In this document: positions 44,560 to 59,254 of the stretch, piece after piece
How positions within the stretch are numbered: position 1 is the stretch's first letter
How the letters are laid out: each line of letters opens with the position of its first letter
DNA from: Gracilinanus agilis
Taxonomy: Eukaryota
Direction of reading: 5' to 3'
NCBI RefSeq assembly: GCF_016433145.1
Contig: NC_058133.1
Coordinates: forward strand, 284,364,202 to 284,428,201
DNA: 64,000 nt
Program-made: the position numbers and the translations under genes
Notes under the pieces: generated by a model
The model's input: only the letters and a program-made list of their open reading frames with translations
What the model was told of the DNA's origin: nothing
The model's database searches: none

Positions 44560-45255
44560 GAGAACTAGAAGTAAAATTAAACATAAAGGAGTGCTGGTTG
44601 ACCATACTACACCAGGTTCCAAGCCTGGACATAAGCCTAAGCCAAGAGCAGAGCACCCTACACTCCCATCAAGAAGTCCCAGGCCCTGACATCAGCCCTC
44701 AGGGAGGCCTTGAAGTCTATAGCACTTGGCCCTTTCAAGCCTGTGGGACAGCTCTAGCCACAGGGAAAATTAGTTCACAGTACTAAGTCCGCACCCATCA
44801 GCAGAGGAGATAGAATCAGTAGTTTTCAGAATTCCCAGACCACAGGCCAAAAAAAAAAAAAAAAAAAAAAACACTGGGAAAATGAGCAAACCACAAAAGA
44901 ACCACCTAAGCATAGAAAATTTCTATGGTGACAAAGATCAAGGCCAAATTCAATAGAGACTGGTGAGATCAAAGCAAGTACATGCAAAACTTCAAAGAAA
45001 AATTGAAAATGGCTTCAGGAACTAGAAGAACTCAAAAAGGAATTAAAAAATCAAATTATGAGAGGTAGAAGAAAAATGGGGGAAAGTAATGCAAAAAGAG
45101 CAATTTATAAAGCAAAAATTGGTGAAGTGGAAAAAGAAGCACAAAAAATACAGTGAAGAAAAGAGTCCTTTAAAAAACAGAACTGATCTATTTAAAAAGG
45201 TAAAAAAAATCCATTGAAGAAAAGAGTACCATGAAAAGTAGAATGGATCAAATGG
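44560..45255 (+). mobile_element. L1 5' UTR and ORF1 N-terminal coiled coil (host L1, left piece)
   Basis: ATGAGCAAACCACAAAAGAACCACCTAAGCATAGAAAATTTCTATGGTGAC at about 44882 resembles marsupial L1 ORF1 starts, followed by K/E-rich heptads. Breaks abruptly at TG 45256. Confidence 0.8.
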
Positions 45256-46344
45256 TGTTATCAAAAAATGGGCAAATTTAGTGAAAAAAGAGGGATAAAG
45301 GTGATGAGGTGATAGGAGGAGGAATGAAAGGGATAGCTGAGTGTAGGGAAGGGATGAATGAGGTGGCATATTGGATGGCAAGGGAATGAAAGGGAGTATA
45401 CAGGAGGGTAGCTTGAAAAGGCTTAACACTGAGGCTAGAGACAGAGGATACTGGGGGAGATAGGCTGAACCCTTCAAGGTGAGGAAAGGTATCTCTATAG
45501 GTACAAAGGAGTTGGGTCAATCATAAATTATTTAAATCTGCCTTGAGGGCTTCTCTTGTTAGTTTCTAAAGTCCCTTTCAGAGAGGAGTCAAGAGGACTC
45601 CTCCCTGCCAGTGAAACTGATGGCAGGAGGAAGTCTCAGGTAAGGACTTCCTGCCAAGATGGATGCCCACAGTTCCCTCAAGAAATAAAAGAAAATAATT
45701 CCTTCCCTCTTTAGCCCTTGCCTTAATCTTAGACACAATGATTCACCAGAGGGTTTGAGTAGGGGATTATTAATGTCAGGAATAATCAGAAGGAGAGAGG
45801 GGTTTTGGGTTTTCTAATAGCCACTAGAGAGAAAGCTGAAGGTGGGGGAAGAGTCACAGGAGAGAGTTAGACTGAGAGAGCCTACTCTTCAGTCAGGAAG
45901 ATTTGACTGTCTTAAAGTAAAGTATTTACTAGATCGATAAAATAAGGGATAGCTTGATTTAAGGATGTCCTACTTGCCTACAGAAAACTAAACCCACAAT
46001 GTCTAATCACCAAAACCACCCTTCCTCCCAGAGCCCAAAGGGAAATTCAGGGAAGATAACAGGGGTATAATATGGAGAGGTCAGGGAGAGGTCCAGAGAA
46101 ATCAGCTAGGTTCAAATTGCCAGAGACAAAAGCACAGGCCAAGGCCAAAGCTAAAACCAAAAGCAGAGCCTCAGTTGGAACTTCCGCTCTCTTCAAGCCT
46201 CAGGTTCCAACTGCCTTTTTGTGAACATTCTAAGACTTCTAACTGCCAGGATGTTTACAATTGACTCTTGCGAGAGCAAAAGCCTCTGTTGCATCTTTGC
46301 ATTACAGTCTGCTCATTTGTCTTTTGAAAATTTGCACCTTGCAA
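45256..46344 (-). mobile_element. LTR of about 1.09 kb, probable 3' LTR of the minus-strand ERV
   Basis: TG...CA termini (tgttatc / tgcaaca). Pyrimidine-rich U5-like end on the minus strand and minus-strand AGTAAA at about 45930. No TSD and only a weak PPT, so orientation and linkage to the ERV are inferred. Confidence 0.55.
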
Positions 46345-47997
46345 CATTTTCTGGTTGCTAAGATCTAAAGGATTACTACTCTTATTCTAAGCTAAACTAT
46401 AACTATGCTTTTATCCCTAAGTTTTTCAAAATAATAAAAAGGGTTGTTATCTCTTAAAGTATGCTAAGACTAATCATAAGCTAAAACTAAGATGGGTTAT
46501 AGTAAAGGCATAGGAAAGGAATGTGGATTTAAGTTTTGCAAAAATTTTTGAACAGAAAGGAAAAGCAGATTAAATGAAAACATTCACATACAGTCTTAAA
46601 GCTTAACATTTGCTAACTAAAACAAAGTAATAAATTCTATCTATGTACTTATCTAATTTCATGAACTAACAACAAAAGTATCAACTAAGAAAATTTCTGC
46701 AATCTAAATTTCTAAATTCCAATTCACCTTCTAAAGTTAGTATATGAACATGTTAGTACACTTATGTCTATGTTAGAAACGTTAGTAAGAAAAGATAAGA
46801 CTAAAATTATTTGTAAGACTTTTGTTTAAACTATAGACTTAAGCTACGTATAATATTTACAAAGAAAGTTTAGAAAACTCTGTCCCTGTTCTAACTTATC
46901 AAACTAACTAACTGTCCCTGTGTGTTAGTAAAACTTATTGCTAAGGGTTAGTAAGCAAAATTTACATATTTACATTTTTACAAGAAATGTCAGGTGATTT
47001 GAGTAGAAGATTTCTGAACCAAAGTGGAAAATTCTAAGCTAAGGCAGATAAACTTCTCTCTTAGGTGTAAGTTTGTGTTTCACATGTAGATGTGAAGTTG
47101 GAAAAATGTTCTATGTGTTGTCTAGTATGACCTATCCATGTAATGGAGTGTTACATACTTACTCCTCTGGAATTCTTCTGCAAAGTGTATGTACTGCATG
47201 GATAAAATCTAAAGTGTTGGATGCAGTGAGAATTCTGTTGGGTGTAAGTTATGTTTTTCAAATGCATGGGTCCAACGCTGCTCCAATGATCCTCTTCACA
47301 GTGTGGTTGTTGTCCTTTACATTGATTGTGTATTCAGTCACGGATGTCTTTTGTAGTCTTCAGGTTTGCTGTCCTTGTGATGATCTGTGAAGTCAGCAAT
47401 GCCTCACTTGTGTTGTTTGATGTTATCCCTTACTTGTCAACTTGCACTGGAACTGATGTTCTGGTTTGTTGACTTGTGTCATTTGATGTACCCGTGTTTG
47501 TCATGTTGCACTGGAACTGATGTTCTGGTATGTTGACTTGTGTCAGGAACAAAGTTCAAATGTCCATGAAACATGATTAATCTTTTCTTCTTTCTTTTTT
47601 CTTTGTGGTTTAATAAAGATGATTACAGGTAGCAAGATTTCATGATAAAATCTTTTGTGCTTTCATTTATTTGTCGATGTCAGTGTCTAGGTCTTGGATT
47701 GATTGCAAATCAAATGTGTCTTCTTCTGCTGTTGATTCTTTTTCATTGTCATAATGGTTTATGGATGATTCTTTTAAGTTGTAATTGGGTTTGGGATAAT
47801 CATTTGGGTATAAAATTTGGTGTAATATGTGATTGTTCACTGGTTCTTGGTCTAATTGTGGTTCTGATTCATGCTCTCATTGTTGTTCTAATTGCTGCTC
47901 TGGTTCTATGGTCTCATGTATAGGCTGTGGACTTATTTGACTGATTGGTTGGTGCTAATTGATCATTGTGCTGTATAATATCTGGGCCTTGTGGTCA

Positions 47998-50900
47998 TTA
48001 TTGGGACATGTCTTTTGCTGGCTTGACATGAGTGACATGGAACCAAGGATCCCTCCCTTTAACTTTTATTGCACTAGGAGTTGTTAAAATTATCCGAGAT
48101 GGGCCATGCCACTTGGGTTCTAACACAGACTTCCTACTGAAGTTTCTGATGTAAACATAATCTCCAGGTTGGAAGTTGTGCAGAAATCAAAGGGTACTCT
48201 TTGATTTATCAAACCTATTTTTTGAAGTTGATTTAAGTGTTTGCTTGAGTAATTTAATGTACTCATAGAGTTTGCATTCCATTCCCAGGTGTGATAATTT
48301 GTGAATGCTTTGAGGTGACTTGCCATGGAAAGGTGGATGGCTATACAGCATTTCAAATGGTGATAAGTATGTAATGCTGTTGGGTTGGCATCTGAAGTGG
48401 AATAGTGCCAATGGTAAAGCATCAGGCCATTTCATATGAGATTCTGCACAGATTTTGGCTACTAGAGTCTTCAAAGATCAATTCACTCGTTAAAACTATC
48501 CACTGGATTGTGGTCTGTATATTGAGTGAAGCTGTTGTTTGATTCTTAAGGCCTCATAAACTATAACTAAACTCTTATTAGTGAAATGGGACCCAGAATC
48601 TGAAGCAATATGTAAAGGAACAGAGAATCTGGGTATTAATTCTCTCAGTAAGACTTTCACAACAAACGCTGAAGTGTTACATTTGGCTGGGAAAGTTCCT
48701 GGCCCTTAGTTAATCTATCCACTATCACTAATGCATATCTGTAACTTTGACTCCTTGGCATAGTGATATAATTGATTTGTAAGTATTCGAATGGTGTATA
48801 GGCTAGTGGTTTGCCTCCCAGACTGTGGACTTTTGTAATTGTCTGGTTGAATTGCATACAAATTCTGCACCTCTGTGAAACTCTCATAGCAACTTCATAT
48901 ATGCCCCTTGCATTCCAATACCTAGTTATGGAATCTGCCATGCCCATAATACAGGGATTTAGGCAACATAGGTTTTCCATTTGTCCCCAGCCAAACTCCT
49001 TTAGCTAAGTATGCACCTTGATGTTTCTTCCAATTCTTCACTTCCTTTGGGGAGAAAGCATTTTTGAGATCATCTTCTTCCACCAAAGATAAGTTTAGAA
49101 TTGTATTTGGTCCATACTTCACTGCGAATTTGGCTGTGATATCTGCATGTTTGTTCCCTGATTCCAATGGCTCTTGAATCTTAGTGTGAGTCTTGCAGTG
49201 AATGACTGACACTTGGGCTAGTAATTGGATTGTGTCCAACAACTGATTAATTAAATTCCCATACAGTATCTGTTTGGCATTTGATGTAATGAAGCCTCGA
49301 TTTTTCCAGAGTTCACCAGAATGATGCACAACTCCAAAAGCATAACGAGAATTGGTAAAAATGTTCATTTTGCAATTTTCGGCAAGCTTCAGAGTGTGTA
49401 TCAATCCGACCAATTCTGCCCTTTGAGCACTCATGGTGGATGGTAATGATGAACACCAAAGGGTTTCGGAGGCTGTCACTATGGCTGCTCTGGTATATCT
49501 CTGATTGTCTACTATTATATGATGATCCATCTGTGAATTTTGTCAAATCAGGGTTTTCTATGGGCTTATCGTATAAATCTGCCCTTGTTTTATGCACGAT
49601 GTTAAGCGTGTCTTCACAGATGTGTAGACTTTGTCCCTCCAGAGGTAAATCTGGGATCAGAATCACAGGATTTAAGCTTATGCACCAGTGAAAAGTTGTT
49701 TTCATTAGCCAACAAGATTGCTTGGTATTGTGATATTCTTTGGGAGGTGAACGTTTGTAGTGTGGTGTTTCTTAAAGTAGATTCCACTTGGTCTGGGGAA
49801 AATACTTTCATAGGAAGATGCTTTTCTAATCATGATGGCTACAGCAGCAATAGCTCTTAAACAGCTTGGCATTCCACAGATTACTGAATCTAATTTCAAG
49901 CTATAATAGGCGACTGGTCTTAGGGTATTCCCTGATTGTGTGAGAACACTAGAGGCTATCCCTTTATCCTCGTGGATGTAAAGGAGGAATGGTTCATCAT
50001 GATCAGGGATACCTAGGGCTGGTGCTGATAGAGTGAGTGATTTTAATTTCTCTATAGCATGGATATGGTCTTTTGATAGTTTTAATGGTTCTGGAACTTC
50101 CTTCATGCTTAGCTCTATCAGAGGTTTAGAGATAAGAGCATAACCTGGAATCCAGTTTCTACAGAAGCTCGTTACTCCTATAATTCCCCTGAGCTTCCTC
50201 TTGGTCTTAGGCAAGCTTAAACAAGTATATCTTGTGTTCTCTTTTGGGAAATCTTTCTGGAGCCTTATTCTAGGATGAATCCTAAATTATTTACCTCTTT
50301 CATCACAAATTGAAGTTTGGTTTTGGAAATTTTATGACCCCTTTTGCCTACCTTTTTAATTGAGTGTACACTATCTGTATAACAGACTTCAGAAGACGAT
50401 GACATTAGCAGAATGTCATCAACATAATGTACCATTTTGCTGTCTTGGAAAGTGATCGACTCAAGGTCTTTCTAGAATTTGACAGAAGACCAAAGCTGAA
50501 TCTGAAAAACCCTGGGGCAAACGGGTCCATTGGATGGATTTGCCTTCCAATGTGAAAGTGAACAGCTTCTGGCTGTCTCTGTGCAGAGGAACAGAGAGGT
50601 ATGCAGAGCTCAGGTCCAGAACAGTAAACCAAGCAGCTTCTGGTGGTATTGCTGCTATGATTCGTGATGGACTTGGTACCACAGCATAGGTCTTTTGCAC
50701 ATTGTTGTTGATTGCTCTGAGATCTTGTACTAAGCACCATTGAGTCTTCCCATCAGGAGATAATTTGGCTTTCTTTACAGGCATGATTGGGGTGTTATAT
50801 TGTGAGAAGCCATATTTTAATATACCCTGCTTTAATAAACTCTCTATGATGGGTTTCACTCCCTCAATCACTTCTTGGCTAAGTCTGAACTGAGGAATTC

Positions 50901-51440
50901 TTGGAGGTAAACCTTCTTTTACCTCTATTTTTATTGGTTCTGCTGATAAAATGCTGCCCACGTCATTAGAATTTTTAGCCCACACGTAATCAGGAATATT
51001 GTTAGGAACCTCATAGATGTTGTCATTTGATTGGTAAGTTGGTTCCTCACTACATGGGTCTAAAAATAAATTGGGATGGTATTTCAGAGATCTCTTGGGT
51101 AGGTGGAGATAGATTTGTCCATCCGGTTGACATTGGATGGTGGCAGCCAATTTACACAGGAGATCTTGCCCCACGAGGTTCGAAGGACACGATGGCATCA
51201 ATAAAAAGGTGTGTTCGAGAGTTAGAAGGCCAAATTTTACCATTTTAACTTTTAGCTTCGGGACTTGTTGGGCTATCCCAGAATCTCCTCTCGCTCTCAA
51301 ACTACCCTGATATTGGCATCCTTTGGGTGCGTCACATAAAACAGAACATGTTGCACCAGTGTCCAATAATCCTTCATAGTGTACCCCCCCCCAATTTCTA
51401 AGGTAACTAGTTATTCTCCACTGTCATTGGACTTCACTGG
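47998..51440 (-). pseudogene. pol: ERV pro-pol, class I (epsilon-like), fragmented by frameshifts and stops
   Basis: Protease LLDTGATCSVL (about 51366). RT QDLRAIN, TRLPQGF and YVDD (50415-50426). RNase H FTDGSS and IHCKTH...GNKHAD. Integrase CRIC, PFEYLQINYITMP, WPDALPLAL and C-terminal WHGP...WFHVTHVK, with TAA at 47998-48000. Confidence 0.96.
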
Positions 51441-51532
51441 CACTAGGGGTAATAAAGAATCCTCAGTTTTGTGTGTGCACTTATTATTGATCCAGTATCA
51501 CATATGGTCATTTGTATCTAAACCAGAACTTC

Positions 51533-52870
51533 CTATAGTACCATCAGGCAAGTCAAGTTTAGAATCAGAAGAACAATAGAAGGCAGGCTTAGAGAGTTTT
51601 CTCTCTCTCTCTCATTAAGAGCTGGAGAGTCATTATCAGTTGTGCAAACTTCATGTTGGTTTTTGCTAAGGGCTGCAGAAATGGAGGTTTGGTCTGATTC
51701 ACTATCCACTCTGTTATCTAAAGAACCGTCAAAACCCAAATAAGAAGTTTTCCCATTGGTTGTATCTGGGAATGTATGGTAGTTAGTTTGTGTTCCCTTC
51801 AACACCTCTGGTACGACTGCTGACACATGAGCTGACTGAAGTTCCCTACTTTGCCCTGAAGTTTGTGTGGCTGAAGTCAGATGGTTTTTGTCTTCAATCA
51901 CTGAACAAACTTCATTGATGTTACTAAGCACACTGGTTACTGGGGATGACAACTGCTCCCTTTCCCTTCCCCAAGCTTCTGGTTGGAATTCTTCAGCTAA
52001 GGGGTTGAGAAAGGTGGGTTTAGAATTTCCTAAGCAGCTGTCAGCACCCTGCAACTCAGTGGGTTGCACTTTTAAAGTTAAGTCTTTGCCAACATACTGA
52101 TTTGGTTGCTCTCTATCCTCTTTCTGTGACATTGTGTCTGAAGCAAGTGAATGGGATTTGACTTTGGGATCTAACTCCCCCAAGGTTACTAAATGCATTC
52201 TTTTCTGAATACATTGTAAATCCTTGCCATAATGTTCTTTATCCAAGCTGCCCAGTTGTTTTAGACTTGGAATAAAGAGAGGAGTTTGAGGCTTTGATGA
52301 CTTTGAACAAGATTGCAAAGATTCATGATGCAAGCTGTTGCAAATGCTTGTATGATCCTTATGCTTCTCATCCAATGTTTTTGTGATGGAATGAGAAAGC
52401 GGACTCCTTATGTAGTCATCTTCACTATTGCCATATATTTCTCTGCGCATTTGCATTATGTCCTCCCATTGTTGATTATCTGCCACAGACATATTTTTAT
52501 ATTCTGTGCAGCTTGCTTGAGACATCTGTTCTGTTTTGCCCAGTTTTTCAATTTTATTTTCCCCACTCAGACTATATATCCTCACACCCAAATTATAATT
52601 ATTAGACCTTTTTAAATTAGGAATCTTGATTCATAACGACTTTGGCTTCGTTCCCATCTGTATGTATCTTTCCATTTCTTTTAGGGATGGAGATTGACTA
52701 AATTTCTTGCATGAATGGCTACAGCAAGGACCATCATGCTTGCTTTCCTCACTTCTCTTTGTATCATTATTGTTTTTGGACCATTTTGTGTTATAATAGG
52801 TCCATCTTGTACCTCTGTCTCTTTGGCTATAATTGTCATTTTTGATAAAGTCAATTTGTTGTCGAAATTT
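51533..52870 (-). CDS. Long post-nucleocapsid reading frame of the ERV (445 codons, one internal TGA at 52631-52633), unknown function, contains a PAM2 motif
   Basis: ORFs 52631..52915 and 51533..52591 are in the same frame, separated by TGA plus 13 sense codons. S/Q/E/T-rich and probably disordered. Confidence 0.7.
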
Positions 52871-54417
52871 ACAAAATTTGAGATATGACCTGGACATCCA
52901 CAAAGAAAACACCAAGTGGAAAATTATTTTGGTCTTTGGGTGTTAATTGTAGGTTGCCTGTATTGATTATGGCTCTTCTAGTTTGAAGGGCAAAATTTTT
53001 TACCTCTTCTAATTTTTTTATCGTTTTATTTGTTTCAACTGTTTTTTCAAATCTGCTATCAGTTCGTCCTTGTCTGAGTCTGTCTGTCTTGCTACCCTTG
53101 CTTCTTTCTGCTTTGAATCATGGATTTATGAAGCATGCTTTCTTACATCCTCCGGTGGCAGTGATTCCCACTGTGGACAGTTTTCCCTAAAATAATTTTG
53201 GATTGGTATTGATGTTCCTTTTACAAATTGCCTATGGATGTGATCTATGGTTTCCTGGGCATGTGTATCACGTAATCCTAGGATTGTTTCTGCTGCCTCT
53301 AATACTCTATCCAGGAAACTACTAGGATGTTCCTCTTCTCCCTGTTTTAATTTTTCAGATTTTGCCATGAATTTGGCCTTTTTGCATGGATCCTCATTGC
53401 TTCTAATAAATCAGTTCTACATTGGATAAGGTACATAAGTTTGGCATATTGAGTAAAATCTATGTCCTGGTGGACTAATGGCCAGGCTGCTAAATTTGGG
53501 TTTGTCCTCATTTCATTTAGGAATTTTTCCTTTTCTGAGGAAGTGTAAAATTCCTCTAAAAGAAATTCCACATCATCGAAACTGGGATTGAATAGTGTGA
53601 ATACCTTTTTTAATTCTTTAATGCTTTTCAATGATTTCTCAAAAAATTTTGGAAAATGTCTCTTTAGCACCTCCATGTCACTTGGGGTGAAAGCTTTGTA
53701 TGTTTTTACATGCACTACTCCTTCACCAGGCTGTACGATTGTTCTCTCTATGATTGGTAAAAGTGAAACTATGGGGAGCAGCTGGGTAGCTCAGTGAAGT
53801 GAGAGTCAGGTCTAGAGACAGGAGGTCCTAGGTTCAAACCTGGCCTCAGCCACTTCCCAGCTGTGTGACCCTGGGCATGTCACTTGACCCCCATTTCCCA
53901 CCCTTACCATTCTTCCACCTATGAGACAATACACCAAAGTACAAGGGTTTAAAAAAAATCTAAAAAAAAAAAGTGAAACTATGGCATTTGCGGATGGTTG
54001 GTTGTTATTGGCCTTTGATGCGTTAGTGGTGGTATTATTCTCTGGGTATTTGGACTCCACGATCTCTAGCTGGAGAATTGTGTGCTTCTCCAGTTCCTTT
54101 CCTTTCCTTATTTGTTTCAATACTTGGAATAGTAGTTTGATGTTATCTACTAGTTCCCCAGAATGAGCATCTTTCTTTGTTGTTGTAATCGAATTGAAAT
54201 ATTGCCACAGGTGAGAGAAAACATTTTTCGAGACCATTAGATATTGCCAGATTGTTAGGATTATGGCTATGGCAGTTGGGATGAAGCAAATACATTTGGC
54301 CTGGGTCAGAGCACACCATTTATAATAATCATAGATATCCAGAACTTGTCGCACGAAATTAGGGACCCTTATAAAACAAAAATCAATAACACCTTGCATA
54401 AGAGACCATAAAATCAT
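52871..54417 (-). pseudogene. gag: ERV gag (hydrophobic N-terminus, capsid, MHR, CCHC knuckle), interrupted by a SINE and frameshifts
   Basis: ATG at 54417. Capsid YKAFTPSDM...FNPSFDDVEFLLEEF, MHR QGEEEHPSSFLDRV, knuckle CFLCGCPGHI-x-KFC at 52911-52871 with a 1-nt deletion. Confidence 0.9.
53775..53968 (+). mobile_element. Young SINE1_Mdo-like SINE inserted in ERV gag
   Basis: 16-bp TSD aaaagtgaaactatgg at 53759-53774 and 53969-53984. Confidence 0.95.
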
Positions 54418-55392
54418 TGAGATGCTAGATAGGATGAATGTTATCCTAGCTAACTTTTAAAGACCCTTCTTTGCATCACTTCCTGTGCCTTCTCCCCACT
54501 TTACAGGGACCAATTACAGTTTTAGAAGTTTGTTAGGACTGCCCAGGGGGCATCAGTCATTTCTGAGTTGTCACCCACATTAGCATGTGGGTTGAGGACC
54601 ACCCCACACTTAGGAGTTAAGTAGGTAGTATACACTTCTGGTGATTAAATTTAAAAGTAAGTGAGGGGAGAGTTAATCCCATCTTCACAGTCATGATAAA
54701 AAATAGTTTACTCATCATATTACAAGAGGTTGTCAAAGAAAACTGCCCTGATATTCTTGGACAGAAGAGTAAAACAAAAATTTTAAGAATCCACAGATCA
54801 CCTTTTGCAATAAATACCCAATGGCAATTACCAGGAATGTTATAGCCAAAGTAAAGAGCTCCCAGGCCAACGAGAAAATACTGTAAGCAGCCAGAAATAA
54901 ATAATTCAAATATCATGGAGCACAAGTCAAGATTACACAGGATCTGGCAACTTCTACATTGAAGGATTGGAAGGCATGGAATATGATATATATGATATTC
55001 TGTAAAGCAAAGAAACTGGGTTTATAATCAAAAATCACCTACCCATCAAATCTGACTATATTCTTTCAGGAGAAAGTATGGTCATTTAGGTTTCCAAGCA
55101 TTCCTGAAGAAAAGAATACACAGATGGTAATCATAGCTATGAATGTAAATGCAATTAGCTCACCAATAAAATGAAATGAATAGCAGAGTTAAAAAGCAGA
55201 ATTCTGCTATATGTTGTTTACAAGAAACACATTTGAGGCAGGTAAACATGTAGAATAAGGGGAAGGGGATTATGCAGAATCTATTGGGCTTCCACTGAGA
55301 TAAAAAAAGCAAGAATAGCAATCATGATCTTGGACAAAGCTAAAGCAAAAATAGATCTGATAAAAAAGAGATAAGGAAGGTAATTACATCTT

Positions 55393-55588
55393 TTTTTTTT
55401 AATTGTTTTTTTTAAACCCTTAACTTCTGTGTATTGACTTATAGGTGGAAGAGTGGTAAGGGTAGGCAATGGGGGTCAAGTGACTTGCCCAGGGTCACAC
55501 AGCTGGGAAGTGTCTGAGGCCGGATTTGAACCTAGGACCTCCCGTCTCTAGGCCTGGCTCTCAATCCACTGACCTACCCAGCTGCCCC
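55393..55588 (-). mobile_element. SINE1_Mdo-like SINE in the L1 endonuclease region
   Basis: 14-bp TSD ggtaattacatctt at 55379-55392 and 55589-55602. Confidence 0.95.
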
Positions 55589-56273
55589 GGTAATTACATC
55601 TTGATAAAAAATAATATAGACAATGAAGTAATACCAGTACTTCACTGATATACACCAAATGGTATAGCATTCACATTTTTAAAAGAGAAACTAAAGGAGC
55701 TTAAGGAGAAAATAGACAGTAAAACTATACTAAAGTGGGGGACCTCAACTTTCCCCTATCAGAATTAGAGAAATCTAACAAAAAAACAAGAAAGAAGTAA
55801 AGGAAATGAATGAAATTTTAGAAAAGTTAGATTTAATAGCTATCTGGAGAAACTGAACAGAGATTAAAAAGGAATATACCTTCTTTCAGCAGTACATGAT
55901 ACATATACAAAAACCAGTCATAAACTAGGGCATAAAAACTTCACAACCAGTTGTAGAAAAGAAGAAATAATAAATGCAACTTTTCCAGATTATAATACAA
56001 TAAAAATATAATCAATAATGGTTTATGTAATGACAAATTAAAAATTAGTGGGAAACTAAATAATTTAATTCTTCCAAACAGGTGGGTCAAAGAACAAATC
56101 ATAGAAACAAACATAGATTCCATTTTAACAATGAGGAGACAACATTTCAAAATTTATGACATATAGCCAAAGCAATATTCGGGGCAAAATTTATATCTTT
56201 GAATGCTTATATCTAGAGAAAAAGAAGATCAATGAATTGAGTATGAAACTTAAAAAAAAAGTAGAAAAAGAAC

Positions 56274-57037
56274 TGTTGTGAGGAAGATTATTTAGTTATT
56301 ATGTAGGAGACTTAGCAGGAAGGGCTGGAGAATTCCACATGGAATGGGGAAGCAGGAAGTGGTTTGCTCTCTCTCTGAGAAGGACTCCATGGTGGTTGGG
56401 ACAAGCTGTCACTGACCCTGGGAGACCTCAGAGGTAGTGGAGTTGTACCCTGATTCCTTGGGATCTTGGAGTGTGGTGAAGGTTGGAAGCAGAGGACATC
56501 AATCCTGCATGACAGCACTGAGTAGGGGAGTGACCTGTGGTCTGGTGGACAGCTTGCAGACTTCCTCTTCCTACTGGGCTACTTTGAATCATCAGTTCTG
56601 GAAGAGTTGGTTCCTGGCATCCTGAAAACATCTCTGGACTCTGCAGTGAGGGTTCCCACTCCAGGCCTGTTATTCTCTGGGCCCTGCGTGGCTTAGGCCA
56701 TGTTTAGTGTAGATAAGTCCCTTACCTCTCCCTATGATTTGCCCTTACTTTGAAAGTGTAGAAACCCTTATTCCCATCCTTTACTGTTGTTTCCCTCAAT
56801 TAAACTGTTATAAACTTTTGCCTTTTGCCTGCTGGTTCCATAGGCCCTTGCCTAGGTGGGGCTGAGTCACTGTTATGGCCTAACTGCCATTTCTTTCAAC
56901 AGTCACCTCCTTAGCAGTTAAAACCCAGTCTCCCTATCTTGTTTGGTCCTGCCTTCAGACATTCCTGTCACCCTCACACCCCATTGTGAACCCACATTTA
57001 ATATTCAAGTCTACTTCCCTGGTTTTCCCCCATTATA
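56274..57037 (+). mobile_element. Solo LTR (764 bp) inserted in L1 ORF2
   Basis: Starts TGTTGTG and ends cattata (CA mutated to TA). 4-bp TSD GAAC at 56270-56273 and 57038-57041. ATTAAA at about 56798. L1 sequence resumes seamlessly. Confidence 0.85.
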
Positions 57038-59254
57038 GAACAAGTTAAAAATCCTCAATTGAAGACTAAATAGGAAATCCTAAAAAAAAATAATTAATTA
57101 ATAAAATTGAAACTAAAAGAGCTGTTGTACTAGTAATTAAGAGTAGGATTTGGTTCTGTGAGAAAAAAGAGAATCAAATAACCTGTAACAAAAATGAAAA
57201 AAGTGAATTCACCTCCAATGAAGAGAGAATTAAAGTAATGATTAGGAACTATTTTGCCCAATTATATGCCAATAAATCTGACAATCTAGGAGAAATGGAT
57301 GAATATTTTTAAAAATATAAATTACCTAGATTAATAAAAGAGGAAGTAAAACACTTAAATAATCTCATCTCAGAAAAAGAAATTAAACAAGCCATCAATA
57401 AACTCCCCAAGAAAAACTCCCCATAGCCAGATGGACTCAAAAATGAATTTTATAAAACATTTAGTGAACGATTAATCCAAATACTATTTAAACTATTTGG
57501 CAAAATAAGCAAAGAAAGAGCCCTATCAAATTCTTTTCATGACACAAATATGGTGCTGATGCCTAAGGCAGGAAGACCCAAAACAAAGAAAATTACAGAC
57601 CAATTTCCTTAACGAATATTGATGCAAAAATCTTAAATAAAATACTAGCAGAGACTACAATAATAATCACATGGATTATTCACTATGACCAGGTGGGATT
57701 TATACCAGGAATGCAAGACTGGTTTAATATTAGGAAAACTATCAGCATAATTGATCATATCAATAATGAGACTAACAGAAATCACATTATTATTTCAATA
57801 AATGCAAAAAAAGCCTTTGACAATATACAACACCCATTCCCATTAAAAAAAACTAGAAAGCAAAGAAATAAAAAGGCCTTTTCCTAAAATAATAAGTACT
57901 ATCTATCTAAAGCAATCAGAAATTATAACCTATATGGGGATAAGTTAGAAGCCTCCCCAAAAAAATCAGAAGTGAGACAAGGATGCCCATTATTACCACC
58001 ATTATTTAATATTGTACTAGAAATGCTACTTTTACCAATAAAAGAAGAAAAAGAAATTGAAGGAGTTAAAGTAAACAGTGAGGAAACTAAAGTATCACAT
58101 TTATGGATGATAATGTTGGCAAACCTAGAGAATCTTAGAGAATCAACTAAAGAATTAGTTGAAATAATGAATAACTTTAGCAAAGTTGCAAGATATAAAA
58201 TAAATCCAAACAAATAATCAGCATTTCCATATATATTCAACAAAGTCCAGCAGCAAAAGTTAGAAAGAGAAATTTCATTTGAAATCTCTGTAGACAATAT
58301 AAAACTCTTGGGAATCTATTTGCCAAGACAAACAGGAATTATATGAACACAATTACAAAACACGTTACACACAAATAAAGTTAGATCTACACAATTTAAA
58401 AAACATTAATTGCTCATAGTTAGGCAGAATTCTTATAATAAAAATGACAATTCTACTTAAATTAATTTACTTATTAAGTGCCATATGAATCAAACTACCA
58501 AAAAACTATTTTATAGAACTGGAAAAAATAAGAAAATTCATCTGGAAGAACAAAAGATCAAAAATGTCAATGGAACTAATGAAAAAAATTGTGAAGGATG
58601 TTGGCCTAGCAATACCAGATCTTAAACTATAAAGTGCTAATCATTAGAACAATATAATATTGTCTAAGAAATAGAAAAAATGGATCAATGGAATAGATTA
58701 GGAGTAAGTGACCTCAGCAATCTAGTGTCCTGTTATGGGGTAAAATAGTTCAGAGTTAGTGAAGATCAGCAGTATTAGAGTATGGCATCTTTTTAGTCCA
58801 AATGATAAAACAACTTGGAAGAAAAAGATGGTCCTGGCCTCGATGAGGATCCTCTTAATGTGATAATATTGTTTCAAGCAATATTTAAGGGTTTTAATCC
58901 AAACTGGGGAGATGTCATGGATCTTTTTAATACTCTTCTCATTCCAGTAGAAAAGACTACAGTTATTGAGCCTACTAAAAGATTAATGAGAGCAGGACTA
59001 CCAAAATGGCAACATACTCACAGAATTGGCCAACTCAAGATCCTCAATGAACCCTAATGACCCAACAGAGTATGCTACACTCATTCAAGGAAGAAAGACT
59101 TTTATTAGGGGGATGGAAGTTAGGCCTGACAATTTTAGTGGATTTCAGATTACTCAAGAGGAAAAAGAAACCTCTTATCAGTGTTATGATCATCCTTGTA
59201 AAGAAGCTAAAAGGTTTGCAGGTTTAGATCTAATTAATTCTAGAAATGCTAGAA

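Follow-up and report, generated by a model that had tools for sequence, protein, structure and literature searches.

A PAM2-type motif as a candidate PABP-docking site behind the gag stop codon of a clade of class I endogenous retroviruses

The window analyzed here (the whole stretch of DNA, 64,000 nucleotides in length) encodes on its minus strand, at 52015..51980, the peptide TFLNPLAEEFQP, precisely as the initial annotation had given its sequence and position. Judged from its residues and their conservation, this PAM2-type motif is real, selected and probably functional, and it is quite likely to bind MLLE domains of the type present in poly(A)-binding protein (PABP). The explanation that best accounts for the observations as a whole, namely that a Gag-Pol precursor carrying the motif would dock on the MLLE domain of cytoplasmic PABP, is likely because all seven consensus residues are present and because the motif is kept clade-wide after the gag UGA, within an extension that otherwise drifts.

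The motif belongs to a single dead, 5′-truncated ERV copy that extends from approximately 54456 to 45277 of the window and that has the following features.

52634..54456, minus strand: gag, interrupted by stops, frameshifts and a SINE, with a p30-type capsid
53775..53973, no strand assigned: SINE-like insertion within gag
near 52911-52870, minus strand: the single zinc knuckle in gag, as placed by Pfam
52631..52633, minus strand: gag stop TGA, read TTA TGA A, family-wide and a probable readthrough site
51430..52630, minus strand: extension of Pol before the protease, ~410 codons here and ~370 in the youngest subfamily
51980..52015, minus strand: PAM2-type motif TFLNPLAEEFQP, with L3, N4, P5, A7, E9, F10 and P12 in PAM2 numbering
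51136..51381, minus strand: retroviral aspartyl protease PF00077 (E 3.3e-6)
48000..51135, minus strand: RT, RNase H and integrase region, broken, with approximate 5′ and 3′ limits
46309..47999, minus strand: region from pol to the 3′ LTR, no env frame seen
45277..46308, minus strand: 3′ LTR (approximate), the 5′ ends of three related copies matching 46308-45277

No 5′ LTR was found in the window, the element starting near 54456, and Rfam gave 0 matches within 45000-56000. The pol of the window copy matched the Pfam families RVT_1, RT_RNaseH_2 and RNase_H; two frames from its integrase region had no Pfam match, and its pol region aligns at the DNA level to L113, a young natural copy whose Pol contains rve and MLVIN_C. 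In L113, the LTRs of which measure 977 bp and are 98.7% identical, Pol is one frame of 1629 codons that runs from the gag stop through integrase. Gag_p30, RVP, RT, RNase H, rve and MLVIN_C follow one another in this order between LTRs, and gag and pol lie in one frame with a stop codon between them, which places the element among the class I ERVs. The family is large, with 990 candidates retrieved by spacer DNA (40 scored) and 9348 retrieved by protease-RT (128 scored). Sense-strand frames of more than 88 codons between pol and LTR were absent from all 10 young copies checked. The N-terminus of Gag contains two hydrophobic stretches with KD19 peaks of 1.8 and 2.4 (window 54456-54230 on the minus strand; L127:1845-2060), which stand where a Met-Gly matrix start would be and may point to intracisternal assembly; such a hydrophobic start is reminiscent of the ER-targeted Gag of IAP. 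Because no env frame was seen and Gag begins with these two stretches, the element appears to replicate inside the cell by retrotransposition.

The copies of the family differ in several further respects. A subfamily without pro-pol (L016, L022, L073 and L076) retains gag, its UGA and the motif-bearing extension; its junction (window 51476 to 48051) is common to 12 of 90 copies, its gag is under purifying selection and its key motif positions are unchanged. In subfamilies B1 and B2 (e.g. L064, L066 and L101) most copies have an in-frame stop in the protease, which, being shared, suggests either that these copies were amplified in trans or that the site is prone to mutation as a hot spot. Synonymous divergence between subfamilies amounts to 0.24-0.29 in gag versus 0.05-0.10 in extension, protease and RT, a gap that points to recombination near the gag stop. 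The LTR of the young subfamily has no match to the LTR in the window. On the small contigs C53668, C53643 and C50123, two element copies are found 7.3-8.9 kb apart, and these represent tandem arrays or assembly artefacts. In the window itself, L1-like fragments flank the element (54600-58300), and two SINE-like copies of 199 nt lie inverted with respect to each other, 1.4 kb apart (53775-53973 and 55390-55588).

The structural definition of PAM2 comprises a hydrophobic residue at position 3, Ala at 7 and Phe at 10, together with Asn/Ser at 4, Pro/Val/Thr at 5, a preferred Glu at 9 and Pro at 12 (PMC2854688, in part), and the consensus has been written as LNxxAxEFxP (PMC7356810, in part). Compared with the published structural definition, the window peptide has 7 of the 7 defined residues, with L, A and F at positions 3, 7 and 10 and with N, P, E and P at positions 4, 5, 9 and 12. 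The peptide is encoded in a frame of 365 codons from stop to stop (52630..51533, minus strand; 352 codons from the first TTG). The strict pattern L-N-P-x-A-x-E-F-x-P was obtained in 0 of 200,000 shuffles of this frame, the analytic value being 1.6e-7; a loose ELM-like pattern was obtained in 343 of 200,000 shuffles of the same frame. The Pfam scan that had been proposed for the motif gave a divided answer. PF07145 was the sole family to match the isolated peptide, which was scored on its own, but at 13.2-14.7 bits, under the curated cut-off of 20, and a Pfam search of the whole 365-aa frame gave no match to PF07145.

The position of the motif between the zinc knuckle and the protease, as annotated, agrees with the Pfam landmarks on both sides, and the richness of the region in Ser, Gln and Glu is present but modest (S 12.6%, Q 6.3%, E 7.7%). 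The assignment of the motif to Gag, however, had to be abandoned. A TGA at 52633-52631, which sits 206 codons upstream of the motif in the window, is common to 75 of 90 aligned copies (several of the remaining 15 do not cover the site), and in many copies the stop is found at a fixed distance after the zinc knuckle. A location within Gag is thereby ruled out, and the frame with the motif is the 5′ part of pol. In the window copy this extension is open from 52630 to 51533 and broken after that. The spacing between stop and motif is mostly 618, 600 or 486 nt, depending on the subfamily, all of these being multiples of three, and in young copies the motif is in frame with protease and RT. Since it lies past the gag stop and in frame with the protease, the motif would exist only in Gag-Pol, which argues against the earlier proposal that abundant Gag coats its RNA through PABP. 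In the wider lineages, TGA was found in 76 of the 78 rows with a stop at this site and A at +4 likewise in 76 of 78, these 78 rows being drawn from 90 that match the upstream landmark, with repeated loci kept in the count. Across lineages, gag and pol are in the same frame in 31 of 49 decayed rows, with 9 and 9 rows in the other two frames.

Gag-Pol with the motif is probably made by readthrough of the UGA. We infer this because frame and context are kept and because UGA-A gag-pol junctions are present in SSSV and in a frog ERV related to epsilonretroviruses (PMC13517186, in part). In 3 of 3 copies, no hairpin after the UGA was better than those of shuffled sequences (z +0.9 to +2.1). We put readthrough forward as no more than probable because A follows the UGA, which by the usual rule makes a weak readthrough context, and because no hairpin beats the shuffles.

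It is improbable, though compatible with part of these observations, that the motif sets the Gag:Gag-Pol ratio, in which case the readthrough product would compete with the PAM2 of eRF3 for PABP, weaken termination at the UGA and so feed back on the making of Gag-Pol, standing in for an RNA structure. The motif occurs only in the readthrough product and no stimulatory hairpin was found after the UGA, both of which would suit such a control, and an analogue is offered by the RT of MLV, which Orlova is said to have described in 2003 as binding eRF1 and modulating suppression. PABP, moreover, promotes termination via its C-terminal domain and the N-terminus of eRF3a (PMC5027505, in part). On the other hand, termination could just as well be raised by PABP that is brought close to the stop, Gag-Pol would be outnumbered by PABP, and little effect of PABP is expected at viral stops before a long coding sequence (PMC13517186, in part). 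Competition with eRF3 in favor of readthrough, as raised in the initial annotation, is thus possible but not favored, because the effect of PABP is expected to be small at stops with at least 1 kb of coding sequence after them (PMC13517186, in part), and here more than 6 kb separate the stop from the 3′ LTR.

Production of Pol and its extension from a spliced RNA or from an internal AUG is quite improbable, and would alter how Pol is made and not the reading of the motif as a PABP ligand. The motif would then stand on a free Pol precursor needing its own way to the RNA, as is the case for the free Pol precursor of foamy viruses. The weak UGA-A context, the lack of a hairpin among the copies folded and the methionines in the extension are compatible with such a route, but a common frame of gag and pol persists across lineages (the 31 of 49 decayed rows), the nucleotides of TTA-TGA-A are themselves conserved, and UGA-A junctions are reported for SSSV and the frog ERV (PMC13517186, in part).

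Selection within the main family was assessed by comparing seven subfamilies column by column in 88 of 100 projected copies, 8 short copies and L025, L082, L079 and L128, which had no clade assignment, being left out. Between subfamilies, dN/dS was 0.13 in protease, 0.15 in capsid, 0.17 in RT and 0.20-0.22 in the remainder of Gag, versus 1.06 in the extension; private variants, which served as a neutral control, gave 0.7-1.25. The number of subfamily-level stops in the extension was 0, versus ~14 expected from 385 fixed changes. The absence of fixed stops together with a dN/dS of 1.06 implies that the extension is translated while its sequence is nearly free. One apparent subfamily stop in the extension was rejected as an alignment artefact, since it disappeared with a closer natural reference, and another lies at a deletion junction of subfamily A2. 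Subfamily changes numbered 0/42 at the seven PAM2 positions and 5/30 at the other five positions of the motif (p ~0.015), and all seven PAM2 residues are present in 60 of 90 decayed main-family copies. When treated as a plain 10-codon window, however, the motif ranks 43 of 339 by conservation in the main family, so that the within-family evidence taken alone is modest.

A crude FoldIndex proxy for disorder was negative in 65% of the windows of the extension versus 24% of those in RT (natural copy L113), the value at the motif being borderline (0.008 in the window, −0.09 in L113). The extension had no Pfam family, no Atlas match and no informative PDB match, and relatives outside this genome numbered 0 among 1978 candidates of 200-639 aa and 0 among 766 candidates of 640-2000 aa, all of these being weak blanks. 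A second patch in the extension (window ~52470-52420, minus strand) reads WEDIMQMRREIYG and is probably an amphipathic helix; it recurs in L247 (MEDDIIEIKERMYG), L272 and L377 (RDVIEIKNRIYG), although the extensions are otherwise unalignable.

Across the genome, the consensus codon pattern had 544 matches versus 4 for a reversed control, and a variant pattern from which the main family was excluded had 37. Among the 30 variant matches examined, 23 are flanked by Gag-like sequence, Pol-like sequence or both, two more can be assigned to ERV lineages from their flanking sequence or relatives, and five resemble host exons. The latter (L143, L252, L254, L260 and L267) are probably PAM2 exons of the host that also fit the pattern, presumably from ataxin-2-like, Paip2-like and TTC3-like genes. 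The SN-LNP start of lineage E2 resembles L254 and L260, which may reflect capture or convergence, and L257 and L258 (G000:C2:337372579 and 337372981) mark two motifs, 402 bp from each other, in a single copy that seems to have undergone a local duplication. The natural variants LNPGAREFVP (L264), LNPTAKEFHP (L255), LNPEASEFLP (L272) and LNPKACDFLP (L351) are located ~600-760 nt before the protease active site, in copies that show 46-58% identity in the protease and lack any tblastn match to the extension of the main family. Pairwise identity among 23 representatives was 0.94 at the key positions, a value that is partly circular because the representatives were hand-picked, versus 0.125 at positions 6, 8 and 11 and 0.11 at 60 flanking positions; the solvent-exposed positions 6, 8 and 11 thus vary like the flanks across lineages. 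In a protease tree with 16 of the 23 representatives, 13 other public rows outside the clade and no WDSV row, the 16 lineage rows and one public protein (P0011) formed a supported clade (100/99).

To lessen circularity, seven sets were fetched by motif-free queries, in which the distinct motif-covering copies counted were 22/30, 27/30, 29/30, 27/30, 19/30, 24/30 and 22/24. Positions 3, 5 and 10 are retained by the majority of copies in all seven sets. Conservation of the key columns exceeded that of the flanks in the two sets that have diverged most (p 0.0026 and p 0.0018) and did not do so significantly in the other five (p 0.09-0.64), such that the motif stands out as a conserved island with significance in 2 of 7 sets. 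At the key positions synonymous codons vary, with six different codons at position 3, and this turnover indicates that the constraint acts on the protein. The expectation by which the initial annotation would be judged, that the motif occurs throughout the family and changes less than the sequence around it, was thus borne out (0/42 versus 5/30 in the main family; 2 of 7 motif-free sets). It should be noted here that the sister lineages were first found via the motif, so that sister lineages without it could have been missed.

Not all lineages adhere to the consensus. In lineage E1, 20 of 27 copies carry Asp at position 4; Ala7 is retained by no more than 6 of 19 E2 copies, many of which have Thr; H has Val7 in 18 of 22 copies, and G has Glu9 in 7 of 24 copies but Glu or Asp in 21 of 24. 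The codons rule out CpG decay as the source of Val7 or Thr7, and those of Asp4, Thr7, Val7 and Asp9 identify these residues as lineage traits. Ala7 has been called invariant and bulkier residues unfavorable at this position (PMC2854688 and PMC7356810, both in part); lineages E2 and H nevertheless multiplied with Ala7 replaced. Given the invariance of Ala7 in PAM2, the departing lineages may bind more weakly, bind another MLLE domain (e.g. that of UBR5) or need no contact at this site. A partner other than PABP for the motif in general, such as the MLLE domain of UBR5, is nonetheless markedly improbable: L3, P5 and F10 stay where position 7 of lineage H or position 4 of E1 has changed, the MLLE domain does also occur in UBR5 (PMC2854688, in part), and the second conserved patch implies that the extension holds other motifs, but the distribution of fixed and free positions across lineages, with 6, 8 and 11 free, fits the PAM2-PABP structure, and the seven residues persist together in the 60 of 90 decayed main-family copies. 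That the motif resembles PAM2 by chance and was passed on by descent in a linker free of constraint is extremely improbable and largely refuted already, for although the extension is neutral overall (dN/dS 1.06), the main-family signal alone is modest and some exact matches would be expected among 250,000 scanned windows, the motif persists where the flanks have fallen to 11% identity without a tblastn match, is also present in relatives outside the search pattern, and shows synonymous codon turnover.

Docking on the MLLE domain of PABP, the reading that we prefer, was also addressed by structure prediction. The host genome encodes MLLE domains (22 matches), and the predicted complex of the motif with one of them (L131) scored 0.42 versus 0.06 for the best control. 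The folding of peptide and MLLE together, as suggested in the initial annotation, thus placed the motif above its controls, but the support is weak since the score lies in the range of passing mismatches: 51 of the 78 solved pairs and 2 of the 108 mismatched pairs passed the mark, but a pass at 0.60 or under was seen for just 5 of the 78 solved pairs and for all 4 passing mismatches. Between runs, at least 76% of the contacts recur, partner pLDDT is 54 or higher, and the score may reflect likeness to solved PAM2-MLLE structures. The window peptide matches the cellular PAM2 ligands (Paip2, ataxin-2, eRF3, Tob and PAN3; PF07145) at the seven consensus positions, ERV positions 6, 8 and 11 vary as the structures predict, and the crude proxy predicts disorder for much of the extension, though it is borderline at the motif. 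Unlike these ligands, the ERV motif is part of a retroviral polyprotein, scores 14.7 bits against a cut-off of 20, and departs at position 4 or 7 in several ERV lineages, its binding being a prediction.

Viral mimicry of PAM2 is already established, the P protein of Hendra virus and the N proteins of HCoV-229E and Berne virus binding the MLLE domain (PMC10132805, in part). These mimics (Hendra/Nipah P/V/C, HCoV-229E N and Berne virus N) share the same pattern with the ERV motif and lie in disordered regions, a setting that is predicted in part for the ERV extension, and their binding has been shown by pull-down and a crystal structure; they belong to RNA viruses without reverse transcription, whereas the ERV motif lies behind a Gag-Pol stop codon (PMC10132805, in part). 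The string 'retrovir' is absent from the main text of PMC10132805. In the mostly non-subscription literature covered, we found no PAM2 in a retrovirus, Gag, retrotransposon or ERV, and no comparably long pre-protease extension in publications on ERV structure; as far as this search reached, the retroviral case is new.

The ERV shares a p30-type capsid, one zinc knuckle, an in-frame stop and an MLV-type integrase C-terminus with MoMLV, WDSV, SSSV and ZFERV, and the UGA-A junction with SSSV and the frog ERV (PMC13517186, in part). It differs from the former four in having no env frame and a hydrophobic Gag N-terminus. The distance from knuckle to protease is 36-178 codons in the 15 public proteins with both landmarks, versus ~460-510 here, and a motif before the protease was found in 0 of 293 public proteins, many of which start at the protease and some of which are gene models. 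The nearest public relatives of Pol are turtle, lizard and opossum entries with 44-50% identity. IAP, unlike this class I ERV, is a class II element that uses frameshifting, and we know of no PAM2 in IAP. The env-less mouse IAP (PMC11334065, in part) is nevertheless similar in its high copy number, the lack of an env frame and a hydrophobic Gag N-terminus.

If the motif acts by docking on PABP, a minority of ribosomes would read through the gag UGA, the motif would emerge on the nascent chain ~200 codons past it, and the nascent or finished Gag-Pol would bind PABP, most simply on the tail of its own RNA. The likeliest use would be to tie the scarce Gag-Pol to its own polyadenylated RNA, with cis-preference and co-packaging in an element that appears to propagate within the cell and in which no env frame is seen. 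PABP held near the gag stop, more than 6 kb from the tail, would in addition limit decay, as PABP tethered near a stop suppresses NMD (PMC5027505, in part). Given binding, we lean slightly towards tethering or stabilizing as the role of the motif, while the tuning of readthrough is doubtful, and interference with host translation or some other role is rather unlikely. In its most far-reaching form, which we regard as tentative and unlikely to hold in full, a disordered Gag-Pol arm of ~400 residues would, throughout an env-less clade, recruit PABP to the RNA of the element and govern termination at the gag UGA as well as decay there, a task otherwise performed by the RNA pseudoknot.

If true, this would be the first PABP-docking motif found in a retroviral polyprotein, as far as the literature search reached, and the natural variants Asp4, Thr7, Val7 and Asp9 would constitute a ready series for mapping the tolerance of MLLE. 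An element of 12 residues would then link two questions, namely how UGA readthrough proceeds without a known structure, as has been described, unverified for the genus, in epsilon-like retroviruses (PMC13517186, in part), and how the scarce Gag-Pol finds and protects the unspliced RNA.
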